A stretch of 41,481 nucleotides of DNA from Paracoccaceae bacterium (GCA_046589965.1 JBKJVF010000232.1:1-41481); one strand, 5' to 3'; numbered from the stretch's first letter, positions 4,378 through 28,763 are shown. Notes: generated from the sequence alone by a model not told the origin. A program made the numbers and translations.

Positions 4378-4998
4378 ATGTTTGGCAACGCGCAGACGAT
4401 TTCGCTGATGACCATCCACGATGATTGTGCCGGTGAAGGGGCAAACCTAGCGTTTCCCAACATGTCCTCCTGCGCTGCCATCGTGTGCGTCCTGGGGGAC
4501 CGCTTGGTGGGTATTCACAAAACGCTAGGAGCGATCACAGGCAAGCAGCTCGCCCTATTCGAATATGCCAAATCCCTGATCGACAATGATACGGTTTACA
4601 AGATCGTCATTACCGGTTGGAAGGCAGGAGTGGGCTGTACCGTTGGGCACGATGCCGCGACTGTCCGCAACGCGCTCGGCAATCCGAATGTTGCCACATA
4701 TTTTTTCAATCTTGCGACCACGACGAAGGGTAGCCGCGACAGCGATGCGTACAAGACTGGCACGTCCAAAAGCAAAATGTCTGACCTGTGCACGTTCGCG
4801 GCGCGAAACGGCACAGACTTCCCGCGGATAACAGTTAAGCGCACCACCAAAGTGACCAACGCAAACATTGCGACGCCAACGCTTCGGGCGGCGGGCCACA
4901 AAGACGTCTCGCCAGCGTTCCGGTTCGGCGCGGTGGCTGAAGACGTGACCAGTTCGCATGATCACGCAATCAGCCAGAACAAGTTCACACAGGTCTGA
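4378..4998 (+). CDS. hypothetical protein (orphan, 206 aa)
   Basis: Strong SD (GGAAAGGAAGG) 6 nt before the ATG. Lower-GC context. No family recognised. Contains an SSCAAIVCVLGDRLVGIHKT Cys..His segment. Confidence 0.55.
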   Translation: MFGNAQTISLMTIHDDCAGEGANLAFPNMSSCAAIVCVLGDRLVGIHKTLGAITGKQLALFEYAKSLIDNDTVYKIVITGWKAGVGCTVGHDAATVRNALGNPNVATYFFNLATTTKGSRDSDAYKTGTSKSKMSDLCTFAARNGTDFPRITVKRTTKVTNANIATPTLRAAGHKDVSPAFRFGAVAEDVTSSHDHAISQNKFTQV

Positions 4999-5388
4999 GC
5001 TGGCACTCGGTTCGCGGAGGCGAAGTGCATTAAGGATGAGAACTCTACCCAATTAAAAATAATTGGCTGGCGGCTTTCCTCAATTGAACCGCGAGACCCA
5101 TCTGTCTAAATGCCAACTGCGGACTTTGGCCCACCGGAAAGCTCCGAAAATGGTTGACCGATGGCACGGCGTCGGAAAGTCTTTGCCGATAAGATGATGT
5201 TGCCAATGTTTTTGATCTCGTGGTTTGGACAGGTCCGGACAGTATCGATTGATGGAGGCTTGATGCGAAGAACCCTTGCGTGGACGTGACTTCTGTTTCT
5301 TATTCCGATCTCGCCGGTTGCGGCGCAAGAACGTCGGGTCGCCGATTTCACTTGGCAAGAGCTAGCCGTTCTGGCGGCGGCAGATGGA

Positions 5389-5937
5389 GTGGGCGACACT
5401 GCATTTGGCTACGAGATTGGACTTGCCAGCGGCGGCGACGAATTCGAGAAACGGGCTGACCAGCGCGCGCTGATCCAGTTTCTGCGGGACGAGGCAGCGC
5501 TGCGGACTTTAGGCGATTCAGGTTGGCGCGAGGATCTCTCCGCCATAATACTGAGTTTGTCGGTGGATGTTGCCGTCCCAACGTTCGATTTTGACGACAA
5601 GATGTTCCGATTCTGCATTCCATTGTAGGTCAATTTCGACCCGGACCCGGGTCTGGCAGGCTCGTCGCTCCAGATCGAATACATCCAGCTGGCAGTGGAT
5701 TTTTATGGGCACGACAGTGGTCTGTGGGCGTTCCTGCCGCAGAGCAGTGGCGATGAGACCGACCGGCCTTTCCGCGACGGGTATGCCGTCAATCCCGGTG
5801 CGCCGGGGGTCAGCATCAATGTCGGCAACACCGCTACGGAAAAGCTCAAGGACGAAGCCGACGCTGAACGCGTCTACCGCCCCTGTTTTCACGAGCATGT
5901 GGCTAGCCCCTACGGGCTATCAACCGTCCCCAAATAA
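5389..5937 (+). pseudogene. hypothetical ORF interrupted by an in-frame TAG (5626-5628)
   Basis: ORFs 5389-5628 and 5695-5937 are in the same frame and separated only by one TAG. Codon usage on this strand looks coding (GAC/GGC/CTG/ATC bias). The frame is open back to 5290 without an ATG, suggesting N-terminal truncation as well. Confidence 0.4.
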
Positions 5938-6166: not shown

Positions 6167-6191
6167 AACGCCCGCGGAACCAACTGGTTCC
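6167..6191 (-). promoter_or_regulatory. EcfG-type promoter motif GGAAC-N16-CGTT (drives candidate sRNA 2)
   Basis: The plus strand reads aacg(6167-6170)-N16-gttcc(6187-6191). It lies in the 304-nt gap between the ndvB stop and the TAG-interrupted ORF. Confidence 0.5.
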
Positions 6192-6241: not shown

Positions 6242-9200
6242 TCAGGGCAGAGCTGTTATGGCACCGGGCGGCGCGGCCCCCAGGGTCAGGTGAACCCGCG
6301 TCACTCCGTCAGCAAAGGGCATGTTGAACGCGCCGCCAGCGTGTTCGGCAGCCTCGCCATTGATGGCCACTTTCGCGATGCCATGGCCCGATCCTTCGGG
6401 ATTTGCCACGACAACCTCGACCGTTGCGCCTCGGTGGCGGACAGTGACCGAAACACCCGCCCACGCTTTCGGGATTGTGGGATCAATCACCAGATGATCG
6501 CCCGCCCGGGTCAGGCCCATGATCCCCTCGATCCCGGCGCGGTACATCCAGCCTGCGGCCCCTGTATACCATGACCAGCCAACGCGTCCTTCGTGGGGGG
6601 CGGTGGAATAGACATCCCCCGCAATCGCGTAAGGCTCGCCCCGGTATCGCGCTGCATCATCGGGTGTCAGGGCGTGATTGATCGGGTTCAGAATGACAAA
6701 CAGGTCCACTGCCTTGTCACCCTGCCCCAGCATCGCATAAGCCATCACCACCCACATCGCCGCATGGCTGTACTGCCCGCCATTTTCGCGCAGGCCGGGC
6801 GGGTAGCCCTTGATGTACCCCGGGTCGAGCGCGGTGCGGTCGAAGGGCGGTGCGAACAACAGCGCAAGCCCCGGGTCGCGGCGGATCAGCCGTTCACCGA
6901 CCTCGGCCATTGCCTGACTGGCACGTGCGGGGTCGCCAGCGCCCGAAAGCACCGCCCAGGACTGCGCGATGCTGTCGATCTGGCATTCGTCTGACGTGGC
7001 GGACCCCAGAAGGGAGCCATCATCAAAGGTGCCCCGCCGGTACCATTGCCCATCCCAGGCATTGGCCTCGATCGCGGCGCGCACGGTTTCAGCATGCGCA
7101 CGCCAGCGGGTCGCGCGCGCAGGATCGCGGACATCCGCCAGCGGTGCCAGCATCGTGACGGTCCGGATGAACAGCCATCCCAGCCAGACGCTGGTGCCTT
7201 GGCCATGTTCGCCGACGCGGTTCATCCCGTCGTTCCAGTCGCCGGTGCCGATCAGCGGCATCCCATTCGCGCCAGTCAGTTCAATGCACTGGTCGATGCC
7301 GCGCGCGCAATGCTCCCACACGCTGGCGGTCTGATCGGACGCGCCCGGCTGGAAAAAGCTGTCATGCGCACCCGCTGGCACCTGCGGTCCGTCCAGAAAC
7401 GGCACCATTTCGTCCAAGATAGCTTTATCGCCACTGACCGCAACATAGCGGGCCACGCCAAAGCCCAGCCAGACCCGGTCGTCCGAAATTCGGGTCCGCA
7501 CGCCCTGCCCGGAATGTGGCAACCACCAATGCTGCACATCGCCCTCGGGAAACTGCCGCCCCGCCGCGCGCAACAGGTGTTCGCGGGTCATTTCAGGCCG
7601 GCTGAAGGTCAGCGCCATGCCATCCTGCAACTGGTCGCGGAAGCCATAGGCACCACTCGCCTGATAAAAGCCCGCCCGCGCCCAGATGCGACAGGACAGT
7701 GTCTGATACAGCAACCAGCCATTCAGCAAGATGTCCATCGACCGGTCTGGTGTCTTGACCTGCACCGATCCAAGCAAGTCGCCCCAATGCGCGGAAACCT
7801 GATCTTGCACCGCATCCAGATCCGCGCTGCGAAACCGGGATATCAGATCGCGCGCGGCCTCGATGCTCTCCGCCTGTCCCAGCAGCAGTTGGACCTCGAC
7901 CCTTTGGCCGGGGGCAAGGGTGACAATGCGTTGCTGTGCGGCGCAAGGATCGAACCCTGCCCCGACACGCCCCGACAGCTTTTCCCCGCGCAATCCACGC
8001 GGATCGGCCATGCTGCCGCCTGTGCCCAAGACTTCAGCGCGGTCGCATGTGTGGCCGTGAACCTGCGACCCCATATCGGCGAAGGCGACGCGCCCGGGAA
8101 ACGCCATCGCAAAGGGGTTTCTCGCCATCAGGGCGCCCGTCTCGGGATCGCGCTCGGTGGTGACGGTCGCTGCCGACACGTTGCGCGATGTCCCCAAGAC
8201 CCATTCGGCATAACTCGTCACGGACAAACGACGCGGACGATCCGACCGGTTGTGCAAGGTCAGCCGGGTTATCCGCAAGGGCGCATCCATCGGCACTGTC
8301 TGCACCATGCTGGAGGCAATCCCCCCTTGCTGGTAATCAAACCGCGAATATCCAAACCCGTGCCGCGCGACATAAGTCCCTTTGCCCCGCATCGGCAGCG
8401 CGGTCGGCGTCCAGATCGCGCCGCTGTCTAGGTCGCGCAGATAGATCGCCTCGCCGGGGGCGTCGGTGACCGGGTCGTTTGACCAGGGCGTCAACAGGTT
8501 TTCGCGGCTGTTGCCCGCCCAAACCGCACCTGCCCCCTCAGCCGACACCACGAAACCAAAGTCCGGATTGGCGATCACGTTGACCCATGGCGCGGGCGTC
8601 GTTGCACCGCGCTTCAGCACGGTCACGTATTCCCGGCCCCCGGCATCAAAGCCGCCCGTGCCGTTCCAGAACTCCAGTTCCGGCAGGTCCGGCTCCGCGA
8701 TCGGTTCTGTCGGCATGGCCACCGGCTCTGGCAGCTTCAGGGGTGCGAGTGCTGGCAACGCATCCAACTGCTGGCTGATATCCCCCCGGCTTGCGGTCAG
8801 TACGACCCGCGCCACCGAAAGCAGCAACGCACGGGTTTCCGGCGTGACCAGATCGGCGCGCAGCACATGCACGACGCCTTGCGTGCGCGTCGCACCCTCA
8901 GTCCGCGGGCGGGAATGCGCTGTGCGCACCGCGGCCTCGATGGCGATCTGCAAGTCCTGCACATAGGACGACGACCGATCATTCAGAATGACCAGGTCTA
9001 CGGCCAACTGGCGTGCCCGCCAGTATTCGTGGGCGGCAAGAATCTGGCGCACCTGGCCCACATCTGTCGTGTCATCGATCCGCATCAGAACGATCGGCAG
9101 GTCACCTGAAATGCTGTGCGGCCACAGCCCCGATTGCGGCCCTGCGCCCGCTATGATGCGTCCCGAATGTACCCGCAGCCGTGGATCGCCGCGCAAGATC

Positions 9201-12200
9201 ATGCCCGCAAGTGTCTGAAAATCCGCAGCTTCGGTGTTCGAGATGCTCAGATGGCGCAATTGCACCTGCGCTTGCGTCCAAGCCAGCGTGGATGCGCGTT
9301 CAAAGGCCGACGGATCGCGGTGGCGATCCACCAGGTCCAGAAGGGCCACATGATTGTCGGCCACCATGGTCCAGAAGGTGACCCGCGCCATCCCGCCTGG
9401 CGGGACCAGGACCCGGCGGCGGATCGAAAAGATCGGGTCAAGGACTGTCCCCGTGGTGCCCGACAAAGGTTCTGTCGCCATCGCCGCCCGCGCCAGACGC
9501 CCACCTCGCCCGATGAACCGCGCGCGGTCCGTTTCGTGTTGCATGGGGGCCGTCTCGTCGCCCTCCACGACCGCAATATGGGCCGCCCAAACCTCCGGCT
9601 CGCTTGGCGAACGACGCCGGCGGGTCGCGATCAGCACCCCGAGTTCCGGCATGAAGTCGGTAACGACAAACATCTTGGAAAAGGCCGGATGCGCAAGGTC
9701 GGCCGAATGCGGGGCCAGCGCCAGTTCCATATAGGAAGTAAGGTCGATCTCGCGGGCCGTCCGGCCAGAGTTGTTCAGGGTGACACGTCGCGCCTCGGCA
9801 TCATCTTCGGCCGAAACCACCACTTCGGTCACGGATGCCAGGGTGCGTGCATGTGCGATGAAACTGGCTTGATGCTCGCTGAAGACAGCGCTGTGCAACT
9901 GGGGCACCGCACCGGTCGGCCCTGACGCCGCCGACCAGAGTTCGCGCCGTTGCGGGTCATGCAGAAAGATGAACGCGCCCAGATCGTCGACCGTCATATC
10001 GCCGCGCCAGCGGGTAACGTCGAGGTCACGCCAGCGGCTGTAGCCCGCACCCGTCGGCGTCACCATCACGCCATACCGCCCGTTGGACAAAAGATGCCCC
10101 GTCGGAAGCGCAGTGGCCGGGGCGTCGAACCGCCGGGTCCGCGGCATATCTGTCGGGTCTGCGGCCCGGATCGCGACCTCTTCGGCGCGCGGGCGCGCCA
10201 CCGCCACGTCGCGCGGCACGCGTTCCTGCAACAGCAGATCTACCGCCTGCATCATCGGGACCGCATGGAACCGGGTCCGGAACAGTCCATCCAGCGCGAC
10301 ATTGGCGATGGCGGTAATCGTCATGCCCTGATGATGCGCCATGAAGCTGCGGACAATCGCGCAGTCCTTGTCTTCCGGCAACCGGGCCGGGGTAAAATCC
10401 ACCGCCTCATAAAAACCAAAGCGCCCCTCGGCCCCCATCGCGGCAAGACGCGTGTAGTTCTGTACCGCGCCCGCAGGGTCCACCATTGCGGCAAGACCGG
10501 TGGCATAGGGCGCAATCACCAGGTTCTGGCTCAACCCACGTTTCAACCCAAGGCCCGGCACACCGAAGTTCGAATACTGGTAGGTCATTTCCAGATCACG
10601 GGCGTTGTAGGCGGACTCCGATATCCCCCACGGAACGCCATGCGCCGCACCATAAGATTGCTGACGGGCCACGATCAGCCTTGTCGTCTGGGCCAGCACC
10701 GAACCCGCCGGTGCCCGCATGACCAGCGATGGCATCAGGTATTCAAACATCGACCCCGACCACGAGATCAGCGCCGCACCGGTGCCGACGGGCGTGGCCG
10801 ATCGTCCCAGCCGGAACCAGTGCCGCGTGCGGACGTCCTTTTTTGCGATCGCGAAGAGGCTCGCCAGACGTGCTTCGGACGCCAGAAGATCATAGCAGTT
10901 GGGATCGACGGAATTGGTGGCAACTGAGTACCCGATCGACAACAGCTCTTTGTCGGGATCGAGCATAAACGCAAAGTCCATCTCCATGGCGAAGCGGTCG
11001 GCGGTGTCGGCAAGGGCAGCAAGCTGCCCCGCATGCGACGTGCCCGCACCTGGGCTTTCGGTCAGTCTTTTGACCATGGCCGCAGTCCAATAGCCAAGCT
11101 CGGTCCCCGCCCCCACAAGTGCGATGACAGCCTGATGCGCAAGTTCGGCATGCCGCAAAAGACTGTCGCGATCTGGTTCCTCCAGACTCGCGTCGATGGC
11201 ATCAAGGGCTTTGCTGCATGAGGCGCAGGCCGAGGCAAGCTTTTCGGTGCGCGCAAGTTCGATCCGCGCCAAGGCCAGCATGTCGCGCACCCCTGCAAAC
11301 AGCTGTTCGTCGCCTTGCGTCTGCACCGCCCATTCCCGGCACGATTGCGCCACCGCGATCAGATGGCCGGCCAGGTTTCCGCTATCGACGGACGACACAT
11401 AGGCCGGGTCCAGCACACGCAGGTCGGTCGTGTCGTACCAGTTGTAAAGATGGCCTCGGAACCGTTCCATCCGGCCCATCGTGTCCAGCGTTTCTTGCAG
11501 ACGTCGGATGGCGTCGGCCTCGGAAATCCAACCCATCTCGCGCGCAGCCGCCACCGACAGAAGGTATAGCCCGATATTGGTCGGCGACGTCCTGTGCGCA
11601 ATTGCGGGGTATGGGATTTCCTGAAAGTTGTCGGGCGGCAGGAAGTGGTCTTTTTCGGTCACGAAGGTTTCAAAGAAACGCCACGTGCGCCGCGCGATCA
11701 GCCGCAATGCCACAAGGTCGGTCGGGGTAATGGCATCCACGACCTTGGCGCGTTGCGGGCGGCTGATGCGTTCGGCAACCAATGGTGCCAGCGCCCAGAT
11801 AATAGCGAATGGCACAACAAGTGGCCAAACTGCCGGGTTCACGACAAGCACGACTGCTGCAGACACCAGGGCAAGTACGACCCCACCGGCCATGAACCAG
11901 TACTGCCCGACCAGCCCCGGACGACCCGACGCCCCCGCCTGTGCCGCGGTCAGCCATTCCAGAAAATGCCGCCGGGTGAAAGCCAGCCTGCGAACGGTGC
12001 GACCGATGGCATCGCCCATGCGCCACGCCTGATCGGCCAGAAACACGATGCTTAGCGTGACCTGCGCCAGCGCAAACAAGGTGTCCGAGCCCAAAGCCGC
12101 AAAATGCGGACGCAGGCTCAGCCCAAGGCGACGCGGCACGATGGCATGCGGCAAACCCAACAGCCGCGGCAATGACACCATCGCCAAGATGACAAGGGTC

Positions 12201-14683
12201 CAGATCGCCGCCTGCGTCAGGGGCAGCATCCAGCCCGCCACCAATGCGGCAAAGGTGAAGGGTCCCACCAACGAGCGGCGCAGGTTGTCGGTCATCTTCC
12301 ACAGCCCGACCGTTGGCACCCCGCCGCGCTCGGTTTTGCGCGCCCCGAAAATCCAGGGCAGCAATTGCCAGTCGCCGCGCGCCCAACGATGCTGGCGTTT
12401 AACAGCGACATCAACGCGGGCGGGGAAATCCTCGATCACCTCGATGTCCGACGCCAGCGCCGCCCGCGCAAATGTGCCTTCGAAAAGATCATGGCTCAAC
12501 ATCGTGTTGTCGGGCACCCGCCCGTCCATCGCCGCCATGAAGGCGTCAACGTCATAAATGCCCTTGCCCGTAAAGGACCCCTCACCAAAAAGGTCCTGAT
12601 AGACGTCCGATATCGCCGCCGCATATGGCTCGATCCCGCCGGGACTGGAAAAGACGCATTGATAGAGCGATCCCTCCAACCCCACGGGCAGCGCGGGCGT
12701 CACGCGCGGCTGCAAGATACCGTAGCCTTCGGTCACCCGCTGCAGGGCCGGATCGAAGATCGCTGCATTCATCGGATGCGCCATCTTGCCGATCAACGCC
12801 CGAACCGTATCACGCGGCAATCGCGTATCGGCATCCAGCGTGATGACGTATCGCACATCGGCCGGCACGCGGTCATAGCCGGCTTCAAATGTCGTGTCGG
12901 TGGCCCCGCGCAGCAGGCGGTTCAGCTCGTGCAGCTTGCCGCGCTTGCGCTCCCACCCCATCCAGACGCCTTCGGACGGGTTCCACAGCCGCCGACGGTG
13001 CAACAGCAGGAACCTGCTTCCATGCTCCATCGGATAGCGTTGGTTCAGTTGCTCCACCGCTTCGGCAGCGGTGCGGATCAGGCCGGCGTCCTGCGCCAGC
13101 GTCTCGGTGGCGGCGTCCGGGCCATCCGTCAACAGCGCATAATGGACCGCGCCATCGATGCTCGACAGATAATGGACCTCAAGCCGTTCTATCTGTTCCA
13201 GAAGGTCGCGTTCATCCGCCAGAAGGACAGGAACCGCAACCAGCGTCCGCAGGTGTCCCGGCACGCCGCCGGTCAGTTGCATTCCCGGCAAGGGATGCGG
13301 GGCGACCGTGCGCGTGACAATGTCGTTGACCAGAGCAGTCCCAAGGTCAGAAGCGGGGAAAACACCCAGAACCGCCAAAGGCAATATCATCCATAGCGGC
13401 GCGCCGACCAGCCAGAGCGCTGACAGCAAGACCACGAGTGATGCAAACGCGATGATCCCGACATAACTGCCAAGCCCCCAGGCCGCGATGGCGCGAAAGA
13501 GGCGCGACCGAAATCGCGGCACATAGGCAACTGCTGCCTCAAGGGACGCCCGGCCGCGCCCCAAAAGCACATAGCCCGGGTCTTTTTCGCGTGCAGTGGT
13601 GCCTTTCGCGGCCAGCGCCAGCACCGCGTCCACGACGGCCAGTTCATCCGGGAGGCTGCCCGCACCTTTGCCCCGCGCGACCCCGCGGGCCACTTCTTCG
13701 ATGGCCGTGCGGTAACTGTTGCGGGTCGCGAAATCCATCGCGGCAAAGTCGGATCCTTCGAGGAGCCTCGCATCGACCAGACTGACCGCCTCGAAGAACT
13801 CCGCCCAGTCAAGTTCGGAAATGACCCGCATGCTGGTGACGATATTACGCATAGTGACGTTGGACGCGCCCTGTCGCTGCAACGCGCGTTGCACAACCTC
13901 GTCAACATCGGTGCCCTGCCTGCGCAGCCGGTCTTCGAGCCACCCATGAAGCGGGGTTTCGACGGGATCCAGACCACGCAGCCGCCGCGCGAGTTGCCCC
14001 GCGATGATTTCCGGCAGCGGAGCGTTGTCATAGGCAGCAACCGCGATGTGCAACGGCATCGCGGGCCCCGATGTGCCGGTCACCCTGTCCACCAAGGCGT
14101 CAGCCTCGGCCCGCAGCGTTTGCGCTTCAGCAATCTGCACCGCCAAACGGCGCATGTTTTCAATCAGCACGATCCGCAAGGTAATCGCGACCGCCCAGAT
14201 CTCGCCGATCATCAAAGGCGTTCGTCGCTGATAGGCCTGGACGAACCGCGTCAGGACAGGGCCTGAGATCAAGCTGTCGGTATGCGCAACATAGGACCAC
14301 GCGATTGAGAAAACGCGCGGATAGCCAGCAAGATGCCCTTCGTCCAGCTTGGGCAATTGACGGTAAAAGCCAGGCGGCAAATCCTCGGTGATTTGCCGCA
14401 GCTGAAGTTCAACCAGGTGGAAATTGTCCAGCAGCCATTCAGCCGCAGGTGTGACCACCCGCCCACGCTGCAATTCGGCCGCACTCGCACGGTAGGTGGT
14501 CAGCAATATTTGGGCGTTGTGCTTGAGCCGGCGTATCAGGCTCGGCACAGGTGGGGCATTGGGCGTGACCCTCTGCGCATCGGCAAGGGTTTCGGCATGA
14601 TGCTCCAGCCGTTCAGTCCCGAAAAGATCTGCCCGTATTGGCGCTGCGTCGCGCCAGGTCGAAATGGTCTTTGCTGGTCTCAA
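6242..14683 (-). CDS. ndvB: cyclic beta-1,2-glucan synthase (NdvB/ChvB/Cgs; GT84 glycosyltransferase plus GH94 phosphorylase-like C-terminal domain)
   Basis: 2813-aa ORF. Conserved N-terminus APIRADLFGTERLEHHAETLADAQ, several TM blocks, the processive-GT motif QHRWARGDWQLLPW and a long C-terminal glycoside phosphorylase-like region. Size and architecture match the known synthases of about 2.8-2.9 k aa. The only start codon between an in-frame TAG (9 codons upstream) and the conserved N-terminus is TTG at 14683. Confidence 0.97.
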   Translation of the reverse strand: MRPAKTISTWRDAAPIRADLFGTERLEHHAETLADAQRVTPNAPPVPSLIRRLKHNAQILLTTYRASAAELQRGRVVTPAAEWLLDNFHLVELQLRQITEDLPPGFYRQLPKLDEGHLAGYPRVFSIAWSYVAHTDSLISGPVLTRFVQAYQRRTPLMIGEIWAVAITLRIVLIENMRRLAVQIAEAQTLRAEADALVDRVTGTSGPAMPLHIAVAAYDNAPLPEIIAGQLARRLRGLDPVETPLHGWLEDRLRRQGTDVDEVVQRALQRQGASNVTMRNIVTSMRVISELDWAEFFEAVSLVDARLLEGSDFAAMDFATRNSYRTAIEEVARGVARGKGAGSLPDELAVVDAVLALAAKGTTAREKDPGYVLLGRGRASLEAAVAYVPRFRSRLFRAIAAWGLGSYVGIIAFASLVVLLSALWLVGAPLWMILPLAVLGVFPASDLGTALVNDIVTRTVAPHPLPGMQLTGGVPGHLRTLVAVPVLLADERDLLEQIERLEVHYLSSIDGAVHYALLTDGPDAATETLAQDAGLIRTAAEAVEQLNQRYPMEHGSRFLLLHRRRLWNPSEGVWMGWERKRGKLHELNRLLRGATDTTFEAGYDRVPADVRYVITLDADTRLPRDTVRALIGKMAHPMNAAIFDPALQRVTEGYGILQPRVTPALPVGLEGSLYQCVFSSPGGIEPYAAAISDVYQDLFGEGSFTGKGIYDVDAFMAAMDGRVPDNTMLSHDLFEGTFARAALASDIEVIEDFPARVDVAVKRQHRWARGDWQLLPWIFGARKTERGGVPTVGLWKMTDNLRRSLVGPFTFAALVAGWMLPLTQAAIWTLVILAMVSLPRLLGLPHAIVPRRLGLSLRPHFAALGSDTLFALAQVTLSIVFLADQAWRMGDAIGRTVRRLAFTRRHFLEWLTAAQAGASGRPGLVGQYWFMAGGVVLALVSAAVVLVVNPAVWPLVVPFAIIWALAPLVAERISRPQRAKVVDAITPTDLVALRLIARRTWRFFETFVTEKDHFLPPDNFQEIPYPAIAHRTSPTNIGLYLLSVAAAREMGWISEADAIRRLQETLDTMGRMERFRGHLYNWYDTTDLRVLDPAYVSSVDSGNLAGHLIAVAQSCREWAVQTQGDEQLFAGVRDMLALARIELARTEKLASACASCSKALDAIDASLEEPDRDSLLRHAELAHQAVIALVGAGTELGYWTAAMVKRLTESPGAGTSHAGQLAALADTADRFAMEMDFAFMLDPDKELLSIGYSVATNSVDPNCYDLLASEARLASLFAIAKKDVRTRHWFRLGRSATPVGTGAALISWSGSMFEYLMPSLVMRAPAGSVLAQTTRLIVARQQSYGAAHGVPWGISESAYNARDLEMTYQYSNFGVPGLGLKRGLSQNLVIAPYATGLAAMVDPAGAVQNYTRLAAMGAEGRFGFYEAVDFTPARLPEDKDCAIVRSFMAHHQGMTITAIANVALDGLFRTRFHAVPMMQAVDLLLQERVPRDVAVARPRAEEVAIRAADPTDMPRTRRFDAPATALPTGHLLSNGRYGVMVTPTGAGYSRWRDLDVTRWRGDMTVDDLGAFIFLHDPQRRELWSAASGPTGAVPQLHSAVFSEHQASFIAHARTLASVTEVVVSAEDDAEARRVTLNNSGRTAREIDLTSYMELALAPHSADLAHPAFSKMFVVTDFMPELGVLIATRRRRSPSEPEVWAAHIAVVEGDETAPMQHETDRARFIGRGGRLARAAMATEPLSGTTGTVLDPIFSIRRRVLVPPGGMARVTFWTMVADNHVALLDLVDRHRDPSAFERASTLAWTQAQVQLRHLSISNTEAADFQTLAGMILRGDPRLRVHSGRIIAGAGPQSGLWPHSISGDLPIVLMRIDDTTDVGQVRQILAAHEYWRARQLAVDLVILNDRSSSYVQDLQIAIEAAVRTAHSRPRTEGATRTQGVVHVLRADLVTPETRALLLSVARVVLTASRGDISQQLDALPALAPLKLPEPVAMPTEPIAEPDLPELEFWNGTGGFDAGGREYVTVLKRGATTPAPWVNVIANPDFGFVVSAEGAGAVWAGNSRENLLTPWSNDPVTDAPGEAIYLRDLDSGAIWTPTALPMRGKGTYVARHGFGYSRFDYQQGGIASSMVQTVPMDAPLRITRLTLHNRSDRPRRLSVTSYAEWVLGTSRNVSAATVTTERDPETGALMARNPFAMAFPGRVAFADMGSQVHGHTCDRAEVLGTGGSMADPRGLRGEKLSGRVGAGFDPCAAQQRIVTLAPGQRVEVQLLLGQAESIEAARDLISRFRSADLDAVQDQVSAHWGDLLGSVQVKTPDRSMDILLNGWLLYQTLSCRIWARAGFYQASGAYGFRDQLQDGMALTFSRPEMTREHLLRAAGRQFPEGDVQHWWLPHSGQGVRTRISDDRVWLGFGVARYVAVSGDKAILDEMVPFLDGPQVPAGAHDSFFQPGASDQTASVWEHCARGIDQCIELTGANGMPLIGTGDWNDGMNRVGEHGQGTSVWLGWLFIRTVTMLAPLADVRDPARATRWRAHAETVRAAIEANAWDGQWYRRGTFDDGSLLGSATSDECQIDSIAQSWAVLSGAGDPARASQAMAEVGERLIRRDPGLALLFAPPFDRTALDPGYIKGYPPGLRENGGQYSHAAMWVVMAYAMLGQGDKAVDLFVILNPINHALTPDDAARYRGEPYAIAGDVYSTAPHEGRVGWSWYTGAAGWMYRAGIEGIMGLTRAGDHLVIDPTIPKAWAGVSVTVRHRGATVEVVVANPEGSGHGIAKVAINGEAAEHAGGAFNMPFADGVTRVHLTLGAAPPGAITALP

Positions 14684-14880
14684 GCCGACAGGCGCATGGT
14701 CACAGAACTATGGTCCCCGGAACGCGCGTCCCCTGTGGGGCCGGGGGTCGACTTTTCAACAGATTTGGAGCTAGTTTGGTCAATCGGTTCCGGCAAATTG
14801 ACGGCATGTCCGACGCCGTTCGCTGATCGCAACCGTAGCGCCATCTCGTTCCATTTCTTCTCGATGCTTGTCCAGTCCAT
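14680..14880 (-). CDS. small CsbD-like protein / upstream ORF translationally coupled to ndvB (66 aa)
   Basis: ATG at 14880 is preceded by GGAAGGAG with 7-nt spacing. The N-terminus MDWTSIEKKWNEM parallels the CsbD start MNWDTIEGSWKQ at 17775. Its TGA (14682..14680) overlaps the ndvB TTG (14683..14681). Confidence 0.55.
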   Translation of the reverse strand: MDWTSIEKKWNEMALRLRSANGVGHAVNLPEPIDQTSSKSVEKSTPGPTGDARSGDHSSVTMRLSA

Positions 14881-14931
14881 CAGCCACTCCTTCCAAATTT
14901 GGGAGGGGACCTCATCGTCCCGCATCAAACA

Positions 14932-14956
14932 AACGCGATGCATTCACTTTGGTTCC
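14932..14956 (-). promoter_or_regulatory. EcfG-type promoter motif GGAAC-N16-CGTT upstream of the small ORF and ndvB
   Basis: The plus strand reads aacg(14932-14935)-N16-gttcc(14952-14956). It lies 52 nt upstream of the ATG at 14880. Confidence 0.7.
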
Positions 14957-15039
14957 TGCAATGCGCGGGACATCCACAGAAAGTGCAGAGACGCTTGGTC
15001 GGCACGGCTGACGTGGGATGCCATGAAGAAAGTTCATGC

Positions 15040-15068
15040 AAAAAAAGGGGGTAGGTTTCCCCACCCCC
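15040..15068 (-). terminator. Rho-independent terminator after the DUF481 gene
   Basis: The minus strand reads GGGGGTGGGGAAACCTACCCCC followed by TTTTTTT. Confidence 0.7.
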
Positions 15069-15117
15069 AGTCATATGAAAAAGGTCGTCCTGGTAACAGA
15101 AAGTGCGACGTGTCGTC

Positions 15118-15951
15118 TTAGAAACCGTACACCAGCGAAACACCAAGTTTGTTTTCGCTGCGCACCGCACGGCTATCGTTGTATTCCGTGAGGTAGCTCA
15201 CACGGGTAGCAAACGCGTCGGACATCTGAAAATTGACGCCCAGGTCATTGTTGACCCGAAGCGCGGAGTCAGACTTCAAAACGTCGGTGTCCATCGTCGC
15301 GAAGATCGTGTCGTTGAACTTGTGATAGAACCGCGAAGACGCGATGTATCCGATCTCGGTGTCGTTGCCGCCAGCGCCGTTCTCAAGATAGCTGGCACCG
15401 ACGCCAGCCTGCAGGCGCCAGGTCGTCTGGGGCGTATTGATGACCCGGTAGCCCGGACCAAAACCGAGGAAACCGTCGGTCGCAGTCTCGGTCGCCAGCG
15501 TCGCCAAGCCATCTGTCACAACACGGCCAAGGGCGAACCCGTAGAAATTCTCGGAAAAGTAGTAGTTCGCGTCATAGACGCCGAACACGCTTTCCTCGGA
15601 TTTCACGCCGTCAGTTTCGGAAAACTCAAGGATCATGCCGATCGTCTGGACAAAGGGTCCGGACGCATGACGAATGCGAGCGCCGAGTGTGAAGTCGCTG
15701 CTATCCGATGCACCTGAAGTACCGGAATAGCCAAGCGATGCCGACCCCGACAACCCTTCGCGATACTCCGGACTGCCAAAGCGGTACTCGTCGTTTGCGC
15801 GCTCGATGTCGATGCGGGCCTGGCGCTCGATGTCGTTGATTTCATCATTCACATCACGAATGCCGGTCAATGTCGTCTGTGCCGTCGCCGTGGCCCCCGC
15901 GATCATCAAAGCGATCATCGAGATGCCTGCCAAATGTAGTGTTTTTTTCAT
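15118..15951 (-). CDS. DUF481 family outer-membrane beta-barrel protein (YdiY-like)
   Basis: Signal peptide MKKTLHLAGISMIALMIAGATATAQ. Alternating beta-strand pattern with a C-terminal ..LGVSLVYGF. AAAGGA SD. Confidence 0.8.
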   Translation of the reverse strand: MKKTLHLAGISMIALMIAGATATAQTTLTGIRDVNDEINDIERQARIDIERANDEYRFGSPEYREGLSGSASLGYSGTSGASDSSDFTLGARIRHASGPFVQTIGMILEFSETDGVKSEESVFGVYDANYYFSENFYGFALGRVVTDGLATLATETATDGFLGFGPGYRVINTPQTTWRLQAGVGASYLENGAGGNDTEIGYIASSRFYHKFNDTIFATMDTDVLKSDSALRVNNDLGVNFQMSDAFATRVSYLTEYNDSRAVRSENKLGVSLVYGF

Positions 15952-17851: not shown

Positions 17852-19621
17852 TCAGGCCGCTGAAGCATCCGCATCCAATGCGTCATGGGACGAAAGCAGG
17901 GGGAAATCGATGCGGACGAAATAGCTGCCGTCACGCTCTCCGACATTCAGGGTGCCTGACAATTGCGTGGCAAACGCCGACAGAAGCTGTTGGCCCAACC
18001 CTGTGTTGTCGGGGTCGGGCGACAGGGTCGGTCTGCGGCTTTCCGACATCGTGTTGACCACTTCCAGCGCGGCGCGGCCTGCCCCTGCCTCGTGGAACGA
18101 AACGGTCAGCAGGGTCTTTTGGTTTGCATTCTGACCCGAATGTTTCAGGGCATTGGTCAGGGCCTCGGTCAATATCAGCGACAGGGGCACCGCCTGATCG
18201 GGCGTCATCCGGATCCGGTCAAAGCTGGTCTTTGTCTCGATTTGACGGTCGTCCGATGCGCCCCCGCGCACCACCTGTGCCACGATGGTCTGCAACAGCT
18301 CATCCGCCAGCACATCCGTCAGCCCACTGGTCTGGTAAAGTTCGCGGTGCACGATCGCCAGACTCATGACCCGATCATGGAGCCCTTTCAGCAATTGCCG
18401 GGCCTCTGGCGCCACGGATTTGCGCATCTGCAGGTTCATGATCGAGGCGATAAGCTGCAGGTTGTTTTTGACCCGGTGATGAACCTCGCGCAGGAGCACC
18501 TCTTTTTGGTGCAACGAGTTTTCCAGTTCGGCCTCGTCATGCATGACCGACGACATCATCCGCTCATAAGCCTTGCCGACATCACGCAGTTCATTGGGTG
18601 CCAGGCTCAGATCCGGTGGCTTGACGATGCGGCTGCCGTCCGCAAATGCGATGATGGACGCGCGCAAGGCCCGAACATGGCGCAGCACCTGATATTCCGC
18701 CGTCAACCACGCCACCAGCAAACTCGCCAACCACATGGCAAAGGGAAAGACCCATAACGGCACCAATCCAGCCAGCGGCGAACTCGACGCGACGACTGCG
18801 GGCCAGGATGCAAGGACGTACAAGGTCCCGGGAACGATCGGAACCACAGTAAAGGTCCTCCGGTCTCCCAACGGCGTACTGGCCATGAAAGTTGCGGGCG
18901 GCTTATCCACAAATTCCACCAGCGGCATGCCCACGGGAAGCCTTTCGCCAATGGTCTCGATCCCGTAGATCGTCGTCAACACCGTGCCTTCGCCGTCAAA
19001 GGTGATCAGTGCCAACGGTTCAGACAGCTCCAGTTCTTTTTGCATCAAGCTGGGGGATGGATGCTCCAGCACCCTGTGCGGCAGTGACAAGGACACGTAA
19101 CCCAAAACCTCGCCCCCTTCGTCAAAGACCGGATGCGAAAAAATCAGCACGGACTCGCCGCTAACGGGCCCCTTGGGATTAACCTTCATCATAGGTTTGG
19201 GGTCTGCGTTCAATTTTACCAGGGCGGGGTTAAGGCCAAAGTCAAGCGCAACTCCTATGGAGGCGCAGGTTGTTTTTCCATCAGGTTGAATGAAGCCGGC
19301 AAAGCTGATCAAGGGTTCGCTTGCCACCAGCCCCCGCATGACTTCCACGCATGCCGCGCTGTCGTCGATGATGGGACGCACCGTCGTCGCCGTTGCCGCC
19401 GCAAGGCCTTTTGCAAGGTTTATCGCGGCAATTTGCGGCGTCGCTGCCAGAAGTGTTTCCCCAAAAAGCGCGGTTTGCCACCGCGCCTGCGCCTCCGATT
19501 CAAATTTTTCCGTCTGGAAAAAGGCCAGCAGCGCCAGGGGAGTAAGCGCAAGTGCCACGGCCGCCAACAATCGCACGCCAAGCCGACCGAAAAGTTGGCC
19601 GCGCAACGCGCGAGTGATCAT
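17852..19621 (-). CDS. HisKA_2/HWE-type sensor histidine kinase (PhyK-like GSR kinase)
   Basis: 589 aa. N-terminal TM, a periplasmic segment of about 250 aa and a second TM. H-box HHRVKNNLQLIASIMNLQ and a C-terminal ATPase region (LTEALTNALKHS, GLGQQLL). The start overlaps the ecfG stop (ATGA). Confidence 0.88.
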   Translation of the reverse strand: MITRALRGQLFGRLGVRLLAAVALALTPLALLAFFQTEKFESEAQARWQTALFGETLLAATPQIAAINLAKGLAAATATTVRPIIDDSAACVEVMRGLVASEPLISFAGFIQPDGKTTCASIGVALDFGLNPALVKLNADPKPMMKVNPKGPVSGESVLIFSHPVFDEGGEVLGYVSLSLPHRVLEHPSPSLMQKELELSEPLALITFDGEGTVLTTIYGIETIGERLPVGMPLVEFVDKPPATFMASTPLGDRRTFTVVPIVPGTLYVLASWPAVVASSSPLAGLVPLWVFPFAMWLASLLVAWLTAEYQVLRHVRALRASIIAFADGSRIVKPPDLSLAPNELRDVGKAYERMMSSVMHDEAELENSLHQKEVLLREVHHRVKNNLQLIASIMNLQMRKSVAPEARQLLKGLHDRVMSLAIVHRELYQTSGLTDVLADELLQTIVAQVVRGGASDDRQIETKTSFDRIRMTPDQAVPLSLILTEALTNALKHSGQNANQKTLLTVSFHEAGAGRAALEVVNTMSESRRPTLSPDPDNTGLGQQLLSAFATQLSGTLNVGERDGSYFVRIDFPLLSSHDALDADASAA

Positions 19622-20196
19622 GCGACTGCCAACCCGGATTGAAACACAACCCCCAAAGTCACGGCTTCGGTCAGGACAGGATTTCCGGTTGGACTGCTCA
19701 TCCCCATCATGTTTGCCAACTGCGCCCGGGCGCGACTTGCGCGGCTTTTGGCCGTGCCGGTCGCCACACCCATCATCTGCGCGGCTTCCTCGTAGGAATA
19801 TCCGTTTGCGCCAACAAGGGTCAGCACCTCGCGATGTTCGGCAGAAAGCTTGTTGAAGGCGACCATGAATTCACCCAAGGCAAGCCGTCCGTCATGCTGA
19901 GGCAATACCGCAAGCTTGCTTGCGTGAATGCCGTCGGGATCGGACACTTCGCGGCTGACCTTGCGGTGATAGGAAAAGAACGTGTTGCGCAGGATGGTGA
20001 ACAACCACGCCCGCAAATCCGTGCCGGGCGTAAACTTGTCGATGTTCGACCAAGCCTTGACGATCGTATCCTGAACCAGGTCATCCGCTGTGGCGTGATT
20101 GCGCGCCAACGACATTGCGAACGCACGCAAGTCGCGGATATGGAGGGTGATGTTGTCGCGCGGGTCGGCGCTGCCGCTTTCTAGCGATGCTTTCAT
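19618..20196 (-). CDS. ecfG: ECF sigma factor EcfG (general stress response sigma factor)
   Basis: DLVQDTIVKAWSNIDKFTPGTDLRAWLFTILRNTFFSYHRK (region 2) and YSYEEAAQMMGVATGTAKSRASRAR (region 4). Lies between nepR and the kinase with ATGA overlaps on both sides. Confidence 0.9.
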   Translation of the reverse strand: MKASLESGSADPRDNITLHIRDLRAFAMSLARNHATADDLVQDTIVKAWSNIDKFTPGTDLRAWLFTILRNTFFSYHRKVSREVSDPDGIHASKLAVLPQHDGRLALGEFMVAFNKLSAEHREVLTLVGANGYSYEEAAQMMGVATGTAKSRASRARAQLANMMGMSSPTGNPVLTEAVTLGVVFQSGLAVA

Positions 20197-20393
20197 GACT
20201 TCCCTTCCCGGTCCTTCAGCTGTGCCAAAAGCTGGATGAACCTGTCCGGCACTTCTTCTGTCAGCGTGGCATTATATACCCGCCTCAGGTTGTCTTCGAT
20301 CTCACGTGCCAAGGCTATCTGCGCGCTGCGCTTCGGCTTGACAACGTGGACGGTTTGTTCGCTGTCGATCTTCTTTGCCATGTCCCCTGACAC
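20193..20393 (-). CDS. nepR: NepR family anti-sigma factor
   Basis: 66 aa, with IEDNLRRVYNATLTEEVPDRFIQLLAQLKD matching the NepR signature. The start is ambiguous: GTG at 20393 or ATG at 20381. Confidence 0.85.
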   Translation of the reverse strand: MSGDMAKKIDSEQTVHVVKPKRSAQIALAREIEDNLRRVYNATLTEEVPDRFIQLLAQLKDREGKS

Positions 20394-20421
20394 TATTTTT
20401 TGCCCCGTGATAGTTTGTCAT

Positions 20422-20447
20422 GGAACTTAACGCGGCACTAGAGCGTT
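20422..20447 (+). promoter_or_regulatory. EcfG-type promoter GGAAC-N17-CGTT for phyR
   Basis: GGAAC(20422-20426)-N17-CGTT(20444-20447), 40 nt before the phyR ATG. Confidence 0.8.
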
Positions 20448-20454
20448 GGGTTCC
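20429..20454 (-). promoter_or_regulatory. EcfG-type promoter GGAAC-N17-CGTT for nepR-ecfG-kinase
   Basis: The plus strand reads aacg(20429-20432)-N17-gttcc(20450-20454). It fully interdigitates with the phyR promoter on the other strand. Confidence 0.8.
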
Positions 20455-20486
20455 ATCGAACTGATCAAAAAAGTGGGGAAGTGCAG

Positions 20487-21296
20487 ATGCCGTTTCAGGA
20501 AAAGCAAAGTGTCAGCGAGACAATTGGAAAAAATCTTCCATTTCTGCGCCGGTACGGTCGTGCGTTGACGGGAAACCAAAGCTCCGGTGATCGTTTTGCT
20601 GCGGCTACTCTGGAAGCGATACTTGCAGACCAGTCATTGATATCAGATGCAACCGATCACAAGGCGGCGCTCTTCAAGGCCTTTCATAGTCTTTGGTCCG
20701 GCACAGGCGCAATCTTGGGGACGCCCGACAGTTCCCTCTCGGCACGAGCCCAAGACCACATGGCGATGCTGACCCCGAACTCGCGCGAGGCTCTGCTGCT
20801 GAGCATCATCGAAGGTTTTACCACTGACCAGATTGCCTACATTCTGCAGACCGATCAGGAGGACGTCTCAGGCCTTGTGGCGGTTGCGTTCGCGGACATG
20901 GAGGCGTCGGTTGCGGGTGCGGTGATGGTGATCGAGGACGAGGCGATCATTGCCGCCGATATCGTAGACATCGTCCGAGGCGCCGGCCACCGCGTGACAG
21001 GCACCGCGCGCACCAAAGCGGAGGCTGTTGCCCTTGCCTTGCGTGATCGTCCGGACCTGATCCTTGCCGATATCCAGTTGGCGGACAAGTCATCGGGGAT
21101 CGACGCGGTCAACGAAATCCTGATCGAGTTTCCGCAGACGCCGGTGATCTTCATCACGGCCTTCCCAGACCGGCTGTTGACAGGTGAACGGCCGGAACCA
21201 GCCTTTGTGATCACAAAGCCGTTTTCCGAAGAACAGGTGCGCTCTGCCGTCGGGCAGGCCATGTTCTTTTCTTCGACGGAAACGCTGACCACTTGA
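20487..21296 (+). CDS. phyR: PhyR anti-anti-sigma response regulator (sigma-like N-domain plus receiver)
   Basis: LPFLRRYGRALTGNQSSGDRFAAATLEAIL is the PhyR N-terminal signature. The C-terminal receiver has VMVIEDEAIIAADI, LILADIQLAD and VITKPF. Start taken at the ATG 6 nt after GGGGAAG. Confidence 0.92.
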   Translation: MPFQEKQSVSETIGKNLPFLRRYGRALTGNQSSGDRFAAATLEAILADQSLISDATDHKAALFKAFHSLWSGTGAILGTPDSSLSARAQDHMAMLTPNSREALLLSIIEGFTTDQIAYILQTDQEDVSGLVAVAFADMEASVAGAVMVIEDEAIIAADIVDIVRGAGHRVTGTARTKAEAVALALRDRPDLILADIQLADKSSGIDAVNEILIEFPQTPVIFITAFPDRLLTGERPEPAFVITKPFSEEQVRSAVGQAMFFSSTETLTT

Positions 21297-24198: not shown

Positions 24199-24604
24199 CG
24201 GGTTTCACCATAGTTTTGAGGGTTTCTGCATCGCGTTGCAGATTTTTGATGCTGCGTGTCGGCGCAAGGTTCTCAGCCGTCATTTGCCGCCGGGCATAAA
24301 GCACCAGCACAATGGCCAGAACAAACAAGGAAACACCGACGGCAACGCTTGCCCAGACGGCTGAAAGGCCCAGCAGCACCAGCGCAGCAACCGCCGCGCC
24401 AGCCAGAACGTTCAGGGCCGTGATGCCAAGGATGACAGCAACGACAACCGCCACCAGTGCACCGATCATGTCGCGCAGGCTGCGCTTGGCTTCGGCCTGG
24501 GCAAGGGCGACTTCGCCCCTGACCAGACGAGACAAGCCAGACAACAGGTCAGACACCAGGTCGGGCGCCGACTCCTGCCGGAACGGACCGTCGCGGGAGA
24601 TCAT
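24173..24604 (-). CDS. phage-holin-family (Holin-X/YqjE-like) membrane protein
   Basis: 143 aa. LLSGLSRLVRGEVALAQAEAKRS is followed by two long hydrophobic helices. ATGA overlap with the upstream gene. Confidence 0.7.
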   Translation of the reverse strand: MISRDGPFRQESAPDLVSDLLSGLSRLVRGEVALAQAEAKRSLRDMIGALVAVVVAVILGITALNVLAGAAVAALVLLGLSAVWASVAVGVSLFVLAIVLVLYARRQMTAENLAPTRSIKNLQRDAETLKTMVKPGATADVHS

Positions 24605-25235: not shown

Positions 25236-25697
25236 TCAGGTCGGCAGTTCAGGAGATGCCAACAGCGACACAAGCTGGCCTCTCATCTCGTGCAATGCCG
25301 CATCATGGCCTTGCGGCAAGCTTGTCGCGATCGCCCGGTCGAACGCCTCAAGGACGTAGTCTTCACCTGACCGGATCTGTTTCATCGTGTCGGCATCGAT
25401 GTGATCGAACATGGCACGCATCGACACGACGGCGCGGTTCACCGTCCCCATGAACGACCCTTCGGCATCAGGAACGGCACCCATTTCACGAACCATCTGA
25501 TCAAGTCGCGCCAAGTGACGGGTGTGCAGCGCCAAAAACCTTTGAACGACTGCTCCAAACGAAGGTTCCGCTTTTTCCGCCATCTTTTCGAACCCACGAT
25601 GGGTGTCCACGGTCTGCCTATGCAGGTCGATAAGGGCGTCCAGGCTCTCACCCGCGGGGTCATTATTTGCGGCGGACGTTGAATCGTAACTCGTCAT
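25236..25697 (-). CDS. PA2169/DUF2383-like four-helix-bundle (ferritin-like) protein
   Basis: 153 aa. LIDLHRQTVDTHRGFEKMAEKAEP and SGEDYVLEAFDRAI resemble the PA2169 family. GGAG SD. Confidence 0.7.
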   Translation of the reverse strand: MTSYDSTSAANNDPAGESLDALIDLHRQTVDTHRGFEKMAEKAEPSFGAVVQRFLALHTRHLARLDQMVREMGAVPDAEGSFMGTVNRAVVSMRAMFDHIDADTMKQIRSGEDYVLEAFDRAIATSLPQGHDAALHEMRGQLVSLLASPELPT

Positions 25698-25734: not shown

Positions 25735-25759
25735 AACGCAGCCAGGCCCTGCCGGTTCC
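25735..25759 (-). promoter_or_regulatory. EcfG-type promoter motif GGAAC-N16-CGTT upstream of the PA2169-like operon
   Basis: The plus strand reads aacg(25735-25738)-N16-gttcc(25755-25759). It probably serves the 25697-23278 four-gene operon, because no motif was found in the internal 71-nt gap. Confidence 0.75.
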
Positions 25760-25796
25760 CACGAAAGGGACGTTTGGAAATACTCTGGGCTTGGCC

Positions 25797-25821
25797 GGAA
25801 CCAATCGAAAGCTCGGGCGTT
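25797..25821 (+). promoter_or_regulatory. EcfG-type promoter motif GGAAC-N16-CGTT (drives candidate sRNA 1)
   Basis: GGAAC(25797-25801)-N16-CGTT(25818-25821). It lies back to back (37 nt apart) with the promoter at 25735-25759. Confidence 0.7.
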
Positions 25822-26059: not shown

Positions 26060-26596
26060 ATGGCCACGACCAAAACCGCCGCAGCTGCACGTCCGGCAAG
26101 CGACACGATCGAAAGCTCGCCCCTGGGTGCGCTCTTCGAGCATGCCTTGAAGGACATCTATTACTCCGAAAAGAAGATCTACAAATCGCTTCCCAAGATG
26201 ATCAAGGCGGCATCAGACCCCGGCTTGAAAGAAGCCCTGACGATGCACCGTGAAGAAACGGCGGGGCAGATCGAGGTTCTTGAACAAGTGTTCGAAAACA
26301 TTGGCAAGCGCGCCAAGGCCGAGAAGTGTGATGCGATCGACGGCATCCTGGACGAAGGCAACGGCCTTCTGGAAGATTTCGGCAAGACGGACGCTGGGGA
26401 CGCTGCAATCGTGTTCTCGTGTCAGGCGATCGAACATTATGAGATTACGCGTTACGGCTCGATGATCGCCTTTGCCAACGCCCTTGGCTATTCCGAAGCC
26501 GCTGACATGATTTCGGGGATTTTGGCTCAGGAGCATGCCGCCGACGTAAAGCTGAGCGAAATCGCAGAAGGCTACATCAACCAAGCTGCGGCTTGA
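26060..26596 (+). CDS. DUF892 ferritin-like protein (YciE/YciF family)
   Basis: LFEHALKDIYYSEKKIYKSLPKMIKAA..LKEALTMHREETAGQIEVLEQVFE matches the YciE/YciF family. Confidence 0.9.
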   Translation: MATTKTAAAARPASDTIESSPLGALFEHALKDIYYSEKKIYKSLPKMIKAASDPGLKEALTMHREETAGQIEVLEQVFENIGKRAKAEKCDAIDGILDEGNGLLEDFGKTDAGDAAIVFSCQAIEHYEITRYGSMIAFANALGYSEAADMISGILAQEHAADVKLSEIAEGYINQAAA

Positions 26597-28730: not shown

Positions 28731-28763
28731 GCGCGCATCCATTGATCGCTGGCCCGAATTCCC

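Follow-up and report, generated by a model that had tools for sequence, protein, structure and literature searches.

The window analysed here is a stretch of 41,481 nucleotides (nt) from a Paracoccaceae bacterium (GCA_046589965.1 JBKJVF010000232.1:1-41481), and all coordinates are counted over its whole length. It contains ndvB, a gene for a cyclic-glucan synthase, which is directly preceded by a small open reading frame (ORF) of 66 codons. The stop codon of the small ORF overlaps the start codon of ndvB, and an exact copy of GGAAC-N16-CGTT, the promoter motif of the general stress sigma factor EcfG, stands in front of the small ORF. The elements of this unit are all read on the minus strand and are listed, with the stress genes of the window, in Table 1.

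The motif consists of GGAAC at 14956-14952, a spacer of 16 nt and CGTT at 14935-14932, and ends 51 nt before the ATG of the small ORF. Transcription is predicted to start near 14925. The small ORF has a Shine-Dalgarno (SD) sequence, and at the junction, which reads gcTTGAga, the TTG of ndvB lies over the TGA of the small ORF. A preliminary description, made from the sequence of the window alone, had noticed the exact motif, the overlap with the TGA of a 66-codon ORF and the SD, and these stand as they were given there. Only the spacing of the SD, described as 7 nt, is counted here as 6 nt, which is a matter of counting convention. Further upstream, a hairpin followed by a T-run and resembling an intrinsic terminator isolates the unit from the preceding DUF481 gene. 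No terminator was found within 14400-15000, and the overlap leaves no intercistronic space. A crude scan of 14400-15300 found no sigma-70-like site, and an Rfam scan of 14500-15150 gave no match, and so no known riboswitch or leader.

The annotation of the small ORF used here differs from the recorded gene call (P0001), which starts at an ATG at 14943 and is 87 residues long. This ATG falls between the -35 and -10 elements, so that the longer version would be absent from the transcript made from this promoter, and the 66-codon version is considered to be the real one.

The product of ndvB, with 2813 residues as previously described, has Pfam matches to Glyco_trans_2_3 (residues 612-835), Glycoamylase (1266-1474; 5e-17), the GH94 supersandwich (2030-2269; 4e-147) and the GH94 catalytic domain (2299-2723; 4.5e-111). 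It shares the size and multi-domain architecture of known cyclic-glucan synthases, namely approximately 2800-2900 residues with a GT2-type transferase, a central glucoamylase-like domain for cyclisation and a C-terminal GH94 phosphorylase.

The start of this protein was checked against relatives. With its first 300 residues as reference, 80 loci encoding related sequences were collected; the closest, from Rhodobacterales/Paracoccaceae, are 76-78% identical. In all 80 loci conservation sets in at the motif W-x-D-x-x-P-I-R-x-D-L-F-G-x-E-R-L-E-H-H, and in the relatives the synthase ORF opens, frequently at a GTG or TTG, between 8 and 30 codons ahead of this W. In the window the W is codon 10 of ndvB and PIRADLFG.ERLEHH follows from codon 15, and the TTG lies nine codons before the W, in the same position as in locus L005. 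An in-frame TAG nine codons upstream of the TTG closes the frame, and none of the eight codons between them is ATG, GTG or TTG. The earlier claims on this point, that the TTG is the only start available to ndvB, that it has no SD, that the TAG lies nine codons upstream, and that conserved sequence begins 14 codons downstream, were all confirmed, with the addition that the first conserved residue is the W at codon 10. A TTG start is consistent with what is seen across the family. The codon overlapping the stop is the sole canonical start for the synthase in eight loci, the window among them. In related contigs the synthase start has been called variously, at the overlapping codon or at codons downstream.

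The sequence upstream of the synthase in the related loci was then read in all frames. Apart from the window, 31 loci have a small ORF immediately in front of the synthase gene, most of them from Rhodobacterales, the carriers including Zhengella, Pannonibacter and a Hyphomicrobiales metagenome-assembled genome (MAG). The non-Rhodobacterales loci L035-L080 have no upstream small ORF of this family, the reference Rhizobiaceae and Brucella genomes lying outside the sample. The predicted proteins start with the consensus M-x-W-(D/N)-x-I-E-x-x-W-x-x-M-x-R-R-x-R-x-D, or MxWDQIExKWxxMTRRxRxD, followed by a variable tail. In the alignment of these ORFs (A1), M1, W3, I6, W10 and R16 are invariant. Past residue ~22 the sequences are unalignable, and their lengths range from 37 to 84 residues; within a clade of 64-residue proteins, tail positions and length are conserved. 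In the first 20 codons, variation measured as column entropy amounts to 0.75 at the first codon position, 0.60 at the second and 1.23 at the third, and the codons for I6, R16, V17 and R18 leave the third position free, with the first, the second or both fixed or nearly so. This third-position variability indicates selection on the translated peptide and not on the RNA. An SD core is present in 31/32 small ORFs, and structure prediction gives their initiation region a higher unpaired fraction than internal coding sequence (0.475 against 0.358; Wilcoxon p=6e-8).

The family is not readily seen in databases. The small ORF of the window recovers only itself from an index of 5.8 billion proteins, and it has no match in the Pfam and NCBIfam libraries. 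The family becomes visible only after a profile is built from the ORFs of the related loci. The A1 profile finds 215 proteins in the same index at E<=0.01, and among the 120 matches listed all are named 'hypothetical protein', none has a Pfam domain and 84 are exactly 64 residues long. An exhaustive HMMER search gives 284 representative clusters (50% identity) at E<=0.001. Homologs were also taken from three long contigs outside the set of loci, and each of them lies immediately upstream of a GH94 synthase of ~2820 residues. Taken together, these comparisons show the small ORF to be a genuine and conserved gene, belonging to an unnamed family. One match, P0236 (315 residues), carries the conserved motif near its C-terminus (residues 283-309) and is possibly a miscalled or fused ORF, and one member of the hit set that contains P0236, not specified further, has a PRC-barrel Pfam match.

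The preliminary description had likened the N-terminus of the small protein to CsbD. This holds for the N-terminal helix; as a whole, the protein fails the Pfam definition of the family. With the CsbD model (PF05532) neither the small ORF of the window nor a consensus-like homolog gives a hit at E<=1, and none of 136 family representatives does so at E<=0.1, while the true CsbD protein of the window (17775-17581) matches with E=2e-16 over residues 4-55. On the other hand, hhalign aligns A1 to this CsbD over columns 1-30 with a probability of 95.7% (E 1e-8), compared with 0.2% for a negative control with NepR, and BLASTP of the small ORF against it finds 9/22 identities (41%; E 2e-4). A search of PDB sequences at E<=10 returned no CsbD-like entry for the small ORF. 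The only match (E=0.03) covers 14 residues of a 26-residue peptide and was rejected as spurious. The AlphaFold2 model, run with an alignment of 63 sequences, has one helix at residues 3-22 and a tail with no secondary structure. Its mean predicted local distance difference test score is 94 for residues 1-10, 87 for residues 11-20 and about 50 for the rest, and the tail past residue ~22 is predicted to be disordered.

Proteins of the CsbD family (PF05532; E. coli YjbJ; the CsbD of the window) thus share with the small ORF an EcfG-type promoter, a length of ~65 residues and a common N-terminal motif, MNWDxIExxWxx...R. They differ in that the sequence of the small protein past residue ~22 is unrelated and variable, so that conservation over the whole domain of ~60 residues is lacking, and in that the small ORF is always in an operon with ndvB whereas CsbD genes stand alone. 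A fair statement would be that the N-terminal helix appears CsbD-derived and that the small protein falls outside the CsbD family as it is now defined.

The junction between the two genes is conserved as well. Every one of the 32 small ORFs has TGA as its stop, and in 28 of them an NTG codon in the synthase frame begins one base before it (23 GTGA, 4 TTGA and 1 ATGA). The remaining four junctions lie within -5 to +14 nt, and two of these (L001 and L004) read TGATG. The frame of the small ORF relative to the synthase is the same in 31/32 loci, the window included, and between the TGA and the conserved W differences in length come only in multiples of three. A G precedes the TGA in 23/32, compared with about 30% expected. 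The corresponding probabilities, 8e-9 (binomial) for the frame and 1.3e-6 for the G, treat the loci as independent and overstate the significance, since the loci are phylogenetically related. Frame and G preference are kept although the tails of the small ORFs change freely in length and sequence. In the three further contigs, gene callers put a 4-nt overlap in two loci, and GTGA is present at the third junction too.

It is of interest that the initiation signals are distributed unequally between the two genes. The overlapping start has no SD core in 25/29 loci. Of the neighbouring genes, 19/25 (76%) have one, and among the other six, two belong to 4-nt overlaps themselves. The unit therefore has the features of a coupled pair: a stop that overlaps the next start, no SD before the downstream start, a strong SD and a predicted open initiation region for the upstream gene, and no terminator in between. 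From this arrangement we infer that translation of ndvB probably depends on translation of the small ORF.

One locus, L022 (Rhodobacterales), has in place of the conserved small ORF a 31-codon ORF at about 2000-2130, MTWNFILLTSTPALPTGRLFDRARRCVTCQA (MTWNFILL...). This ORF has an SD, a GTGA junction on the synthase start and an exact GGAAC-N17-CGTT upstream, and here the coupling seems to have outlasted the peptide.

The promoter motif was compared in 30 relatives with enough upstream sequence. It is found at the orthologous position in exact form in 10/30 and with at most one mismatch in 14/30, mostly 49-59 nt before the ATG, with most of the exact copies at 52-59 nt, while among 149 control windows none has the exact motif and four come within one mismatch. 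Among cultured carriers, Cypionkella sinensis KCTC 52039 (L004) has the exact motif, C. psychrotolerans PAMC 27389 (L032) and Rhodovulum steppense DSM 21153 (L030) differ from it at one position, and in Pannonibacter phragmitetus DSM 14782 (L026) and Szabonella alba (L079) it is unrecognisable. The motif also precedes synthase genes that have no such small ORF in front of them. An exact copy stands 160-240 nt upstream of the synthase in 10 loci of this kind, against about 0.18 expected. They are Reyranella (L038, L040 and L041), Rhizomicrobium (L044, L055 and L067), two other MAGs and two Rhodobacterales, with L072, L076 and L015 also among them, and the three Reyranella loci have the motif at an identical distance (-237). 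Promoter and small ORF are thus separable features with overlapping distributions, and the window has both. To judge from the loci without the small ORF, stress control of cyclic glucan synthesis would seem to be widespread among Alphaproteobacteria.

Within the window, GGAAC-N16-CGTT occurs eight times, compared with 0.33 expected from shuffles, and GGAAC-N17-CGTT at six more sites, giving 14 in total. For nine of the 14 a plausible start codon follows at 33-81 nt, in most cases that of a typical stress gene, and the 51 nt of the small ORF fall inside the range set by the other eight. Judged by its domains, the region 17852-21296 is the core general stress response locus, with PhyR, NepR, EcfG and a histidine kinase, and lies 5 kb from the small ORF/ndvB operon. 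The surrounding region (17267-37663) reads as an island of stress genes.

Table 1. Features of the small ORF/ndvB unit and of the stress genes in the window. N16 and N17 refer to the spacer of the GGAAC/CGTT motif.
Feature	Position	Strand	Remarks
Upstream gene, DUF481	15951-15118	-	Pfam match
Hairpin and T-run, like an intrinsic terminator	15047..15068	-	GGGGGTGGGGAAACCTACCCCC TTTTTTT; ends the DUF481 gene
EcfG-type promoter (putative)	14932..14956	-	exact motif; GGAAC -35, N16, CGTT -10
Shine-Dalgarno sequence of small ORF	14887..14894	-	GGAAGGAG, then 6 nt (tggctg) and ATG at 14880
Small ORF	14680..14880	-	66 codons and TGA (14682-14680); starts MDWTSIEKKWNEMALRLRS, ends RLSA
In-frame TAG in ndvB frame	14708..14710	-	nine codons upstream of TTG, closes frame
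TTGA stop/start overlap	14680..14683	-	ndvB TTG (14683-14681) over small-ORF TGA (14682-14680)
ndvB, cyclic-glucan synthase	6242..14683	-	2813 residues; Pfam matches, start positions of relatives
phyR	20481-21296	+	Pfam PhyR_sigma2, PhyR_sigma-like, Response_reg
Overlapping divergent N17 sites between phyR and nepR	20422-20447 / 20454-20429	+ / -	overlap almost complete
nepR-like ORF	20393-20193	-	66 residues; overlaps ecfG by 4 nt
EcfG-type ECF sigma factor	20196-19618	-	Pfam match
HWE/HisKA_2 histidine kinase	19621-17852	-	overlaps sigma gene by 4 nt
CsbD gene	17775-17581	-	N16 site 33-81 nt before start
DUF1328 gene	17440-17267	-	motif site 33-81 nt before start
Pyrid_ox_like/GSP26-like gene	23150-22659	-	motif site 33-81 nt before start
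DUF2383 gene	25697-25236	-	motif site 33-81 nt before start
DUF892 gene	26060-26596	+	motif site 238 nt upstream
AI-2E transporter gene	28672-26663	-	motif site 33-81 nt before start
Gene for possible PRC-barrel protein	28836-29132	+	motif site 33-81 nt before start
OpuAC betaine-binding protein and ABC system	32788-36615	+	motif site 33-81 nt before start
BrkB gene	36815-37663	+	motif site 33-81 nt before start

The operon thus has the marks of the PhyR-NepR-EcfG regulon: the GGAAC-N16-CGTT motif at a suitable distance and conserved in relatives, the three regulators encoded in the same window, and typical regulon genes close by. In Sphingopyxis the same consensus has been described, csbD is a direct EcfG target, and nepR and ecfG overlap by 4 bp (PMC7083833). 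We infer that the promoter of the window is recognised by EcfG and that its transcription is probably EcfG-dependent.

On these grounds we propose, and consider likely, that the small ORF and ndvB form a two-gene stress operon, driven by EcfG, in which the synthase is reached by termination-reinitiation from the small ORF. Stress would activate EcfG, and a common mRNA would be transcribed from the promoter at 14956-14932, its leader being about 45 nt long. Loading at the strong SD, ribosomes would make the 66-residue protein, with its CsbD-related amphipathic helix and disordered tail, and at the UGA a fraction of them would reinitiate at the overlapping UUG to make the synthase. The output of synthase would then be set by general stress transcription together with the translation rate of the small gene, and the synthase would probably be produced under the general stress response alone, solely by ribosomes coming straight from the small gene. 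A dependence of this kind had been put forward as possible in the preliminary description, which also called for a comparison of related ndvB 5' regions. That comparison, with the small ORF present in 32 loci, the overlap in 28 of them and the promoter position conserved, supports it.

Some observations tell against this proposal, and several of them fit a simpler arrangement, a compact operon in which the two genes are co-transcribed, ndvB initiates by itself at the UUG without an SD, and the overlap is a by-product of packing with no regulatory effect. Initiation without an SD is common in Alphaproteobacteria, and a missing SD is no proof of coupling. The junction is not predicted to be sequestered (0.40 unpaired, against 0.36 in coding controls), which makes independent initiation at the UUG conceivable. 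Overlaps of 4 nt are frequent in the window, with at least five besides this one (nepR/ecfG at 20193-20196, ecfG/kinase at 19618-19621, and 957-960, 24601-24604 and 35845-35848), and two loci depart from the usual junction, L002 having a gap of 11 nt from stop to start and L023 an 8-nt overlap in another frame relative to the synthase. Moreover, any base but C before a TGA stop gives NTG, or about 70% by chance, so that 28/32 is unremarkable alone and the weight falls on frame, position and G preference. A compact operon is nonetheless unlikely, though it retains some weight: overlap, frame and G preference persist despite tails that are too diverged to align in ORFs of 37 to 84 residues, the degenerate 31-codon ORF of L022 has kept its GTGA at the synthase start, and a weak start lacking an SD contrasts with the SD usage of neighbouring genes. 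The accessibility of the junction also bears on how coupling would work. A model in which translation of the small ORF unmasks a structure-hidden ndvB start is not supported, as the predicted accessibility barely differs from coding controls, and plain termination-reinitiation is favoured. It is quite improbable that the small ORF is a regulatory leader peptide, whose translation would sense a signal through stalling or attenuation and gate ndvB, the peptide itself having no function. It is short, with a strong SD, it always comes first on the mRNA, in close contact with ndvB, and its tail shows little conservation, all of which would suit a leader. Yet selection acts on the N-terminal 20 residues and not on the C-terminal, stall-proximal part, the N-terminus is homologous to that of a real protein family, and tail positions and length are kept in the 64-residue clade (84/120 of the proteins listed). 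Neither alternative terminator structures nor a conserved C-terminal stalling motif was found, there is no antiterminator and no room for one, and Rfam has no matching leader. A chance ORF, or an NdvB fusion produced by frameshifting or by a sequencing error at the junction, is refuted by the comparative data. ORFs of 66 codons do arise by chance in a genome of 60% GC, and nothing else was found in its favour; set against this are the numbers of profile matches, the architecture shared by 32 loci, the coding-like codon-position signature and a frame offset that is identical in independently assembled genomes. A frameshift fusion was examined and rejected, no locus having a slippery heptamer before the stop.

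The promoter requires a similar weighing, since GGAAC-N16-CGTT might not work, or not be the sole promoter, with ndvB transcribed mainly from a housekeeping promoter or one of another extracytoplasmic function (ECF) sigma factor. GGAAC/CGT-type motifs can be used by other ECF sigma factors. The motif is unrecognisable in about half of the small-ORF loci, which implies that EcfG control is not universal and that other promoters may exist. Publications on Rhizobiaceae report control of ndvA by FeuPQ and lower ndvA/ndvB expression at high osmolarity, and not EcfG, and in Rhodobacter sphaeroides the PhyR homolog has a limited role, in membrane stress (PMC5830050). In the window, on the other side, the motif is exact and its distance from the ATG is in the range of the eight other sites, the gene for the cognate sigma factor lies 5 kb from it, and the upstream terminator excludes read-through; elsewhere, the motif is kept at the orthologous position and recurs before ndvB in unrelated lineages. 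We regard a different or an additional promoter as rather unlikely for the window.

Returning to the proposed operon, the role of the small protein is a matter for more tentative suggestion. Conservation at the protein level and strict linkage suggest a partner or modulator of the synthase, and we would guess that the two are produced in a constant ratio. Coupling would deliver the CsbD-derived amphipathic helix with its disordered tail beside the nascent enzyme, where the small protein could bind the cytoplasmic face of the synthase or the membrane and tune its stability, priming or output under stress. That it is a dedicated partner of the synthase, and not a mere translational leader, is possible, with the balance of our judgement against it.

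Cyclic beta-1,2-glucans act as osmoprotectants of the envelope and as factors in the interaction with hosts. The synthase that makes them is usually regarded as an enzyme working on its own, and the known regulation of the pathway concerns mostly enzyme activity and the exporter. To this the present analysis would add two layers: transcription of the synthase from EcfG-type promoters in several alphaproteobacterial lineages, and, in Rhodobacterales, obligatory co-expression through the overlap with an unnamed protein of ~60 residues. Neither layer is described in the searchable literature. A search of the non-subscription literature found no prior report linking ndvB, cgs or chvB with EcfG, RpoE2, RpoE1 or PhyR, and none of translational coupling at cyclic-glucan genes. 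The EcfG/RpoE2 targets known from that literature do not include ndvB, cgs or chvB, in contrast to the candidate operon of the window. What is already known is the mechanism of stop/start coupling and the EcfG promoters, which are textbook matter. What is new here is a family of unnamed small proteins linked to cyclic glucan synthase, together with evidence placing the synthase in the general stress regulon in several lineages.

Among known systems a close parallel is nepR-ecfG, in the window and in Sphingopyxis granuli (PMC7083833), where the two genes are likewise on the same strand and transcript and the stop overlaps the start. Coupled pairs with an NTGA junction similarly have a downstream gene with no SD and an upstream gene with a strong SD and an open initiation region. 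The pair in the window differs in that the upstream partner is tiny (66 residues) and the downstream one is a membrane enzyme of 2813 residues with a weak UUG start. The locus would be a tractable case for studying the role of the CsbD-type helix, and it is of use for annotation, given that P0001 mis-starts the small gene and its homologs are labelled only 'hypothetical'.

Several minor features of the window may be added. Divergent pairs of motif sites occur in the stress island at 25735-25821 and 28706-28788, and a further site (25545-25569, minus strand) lies inside the DUF2383 gene. Another, at 32708-32733 on the plus strand, falls within a 385-residue minus-strand ORF (32614-33771). Given the strong Pfam match of the OpuAC gene on the plus strand (32788-33708), this ORF is probably spurious. 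An exact GGAAC-N16-CGTT is also present at 6167-6191 on the minus strand, 51 nt past the ndvB stop. It includes the palindrome GGAACCAGTTGGTTCC, and no SD-led ORF of at least 30 codons follows within 260 nt. This site could be the promoter of a stress-dependent small RNA, a protein-binding site, or a chance occurrence. Finally, a gene of the NTP_transferase type (sugar-nucleotide pyrophosphorylase) is found in the stress island at 29279-30382 on the minus strand, and in L085 a gene of the same family (4909-5778) lies directly upstream of the small ORF/synthase pair. The NTP_transferase gene might serve the supply of UDP-glucose for the synthase.

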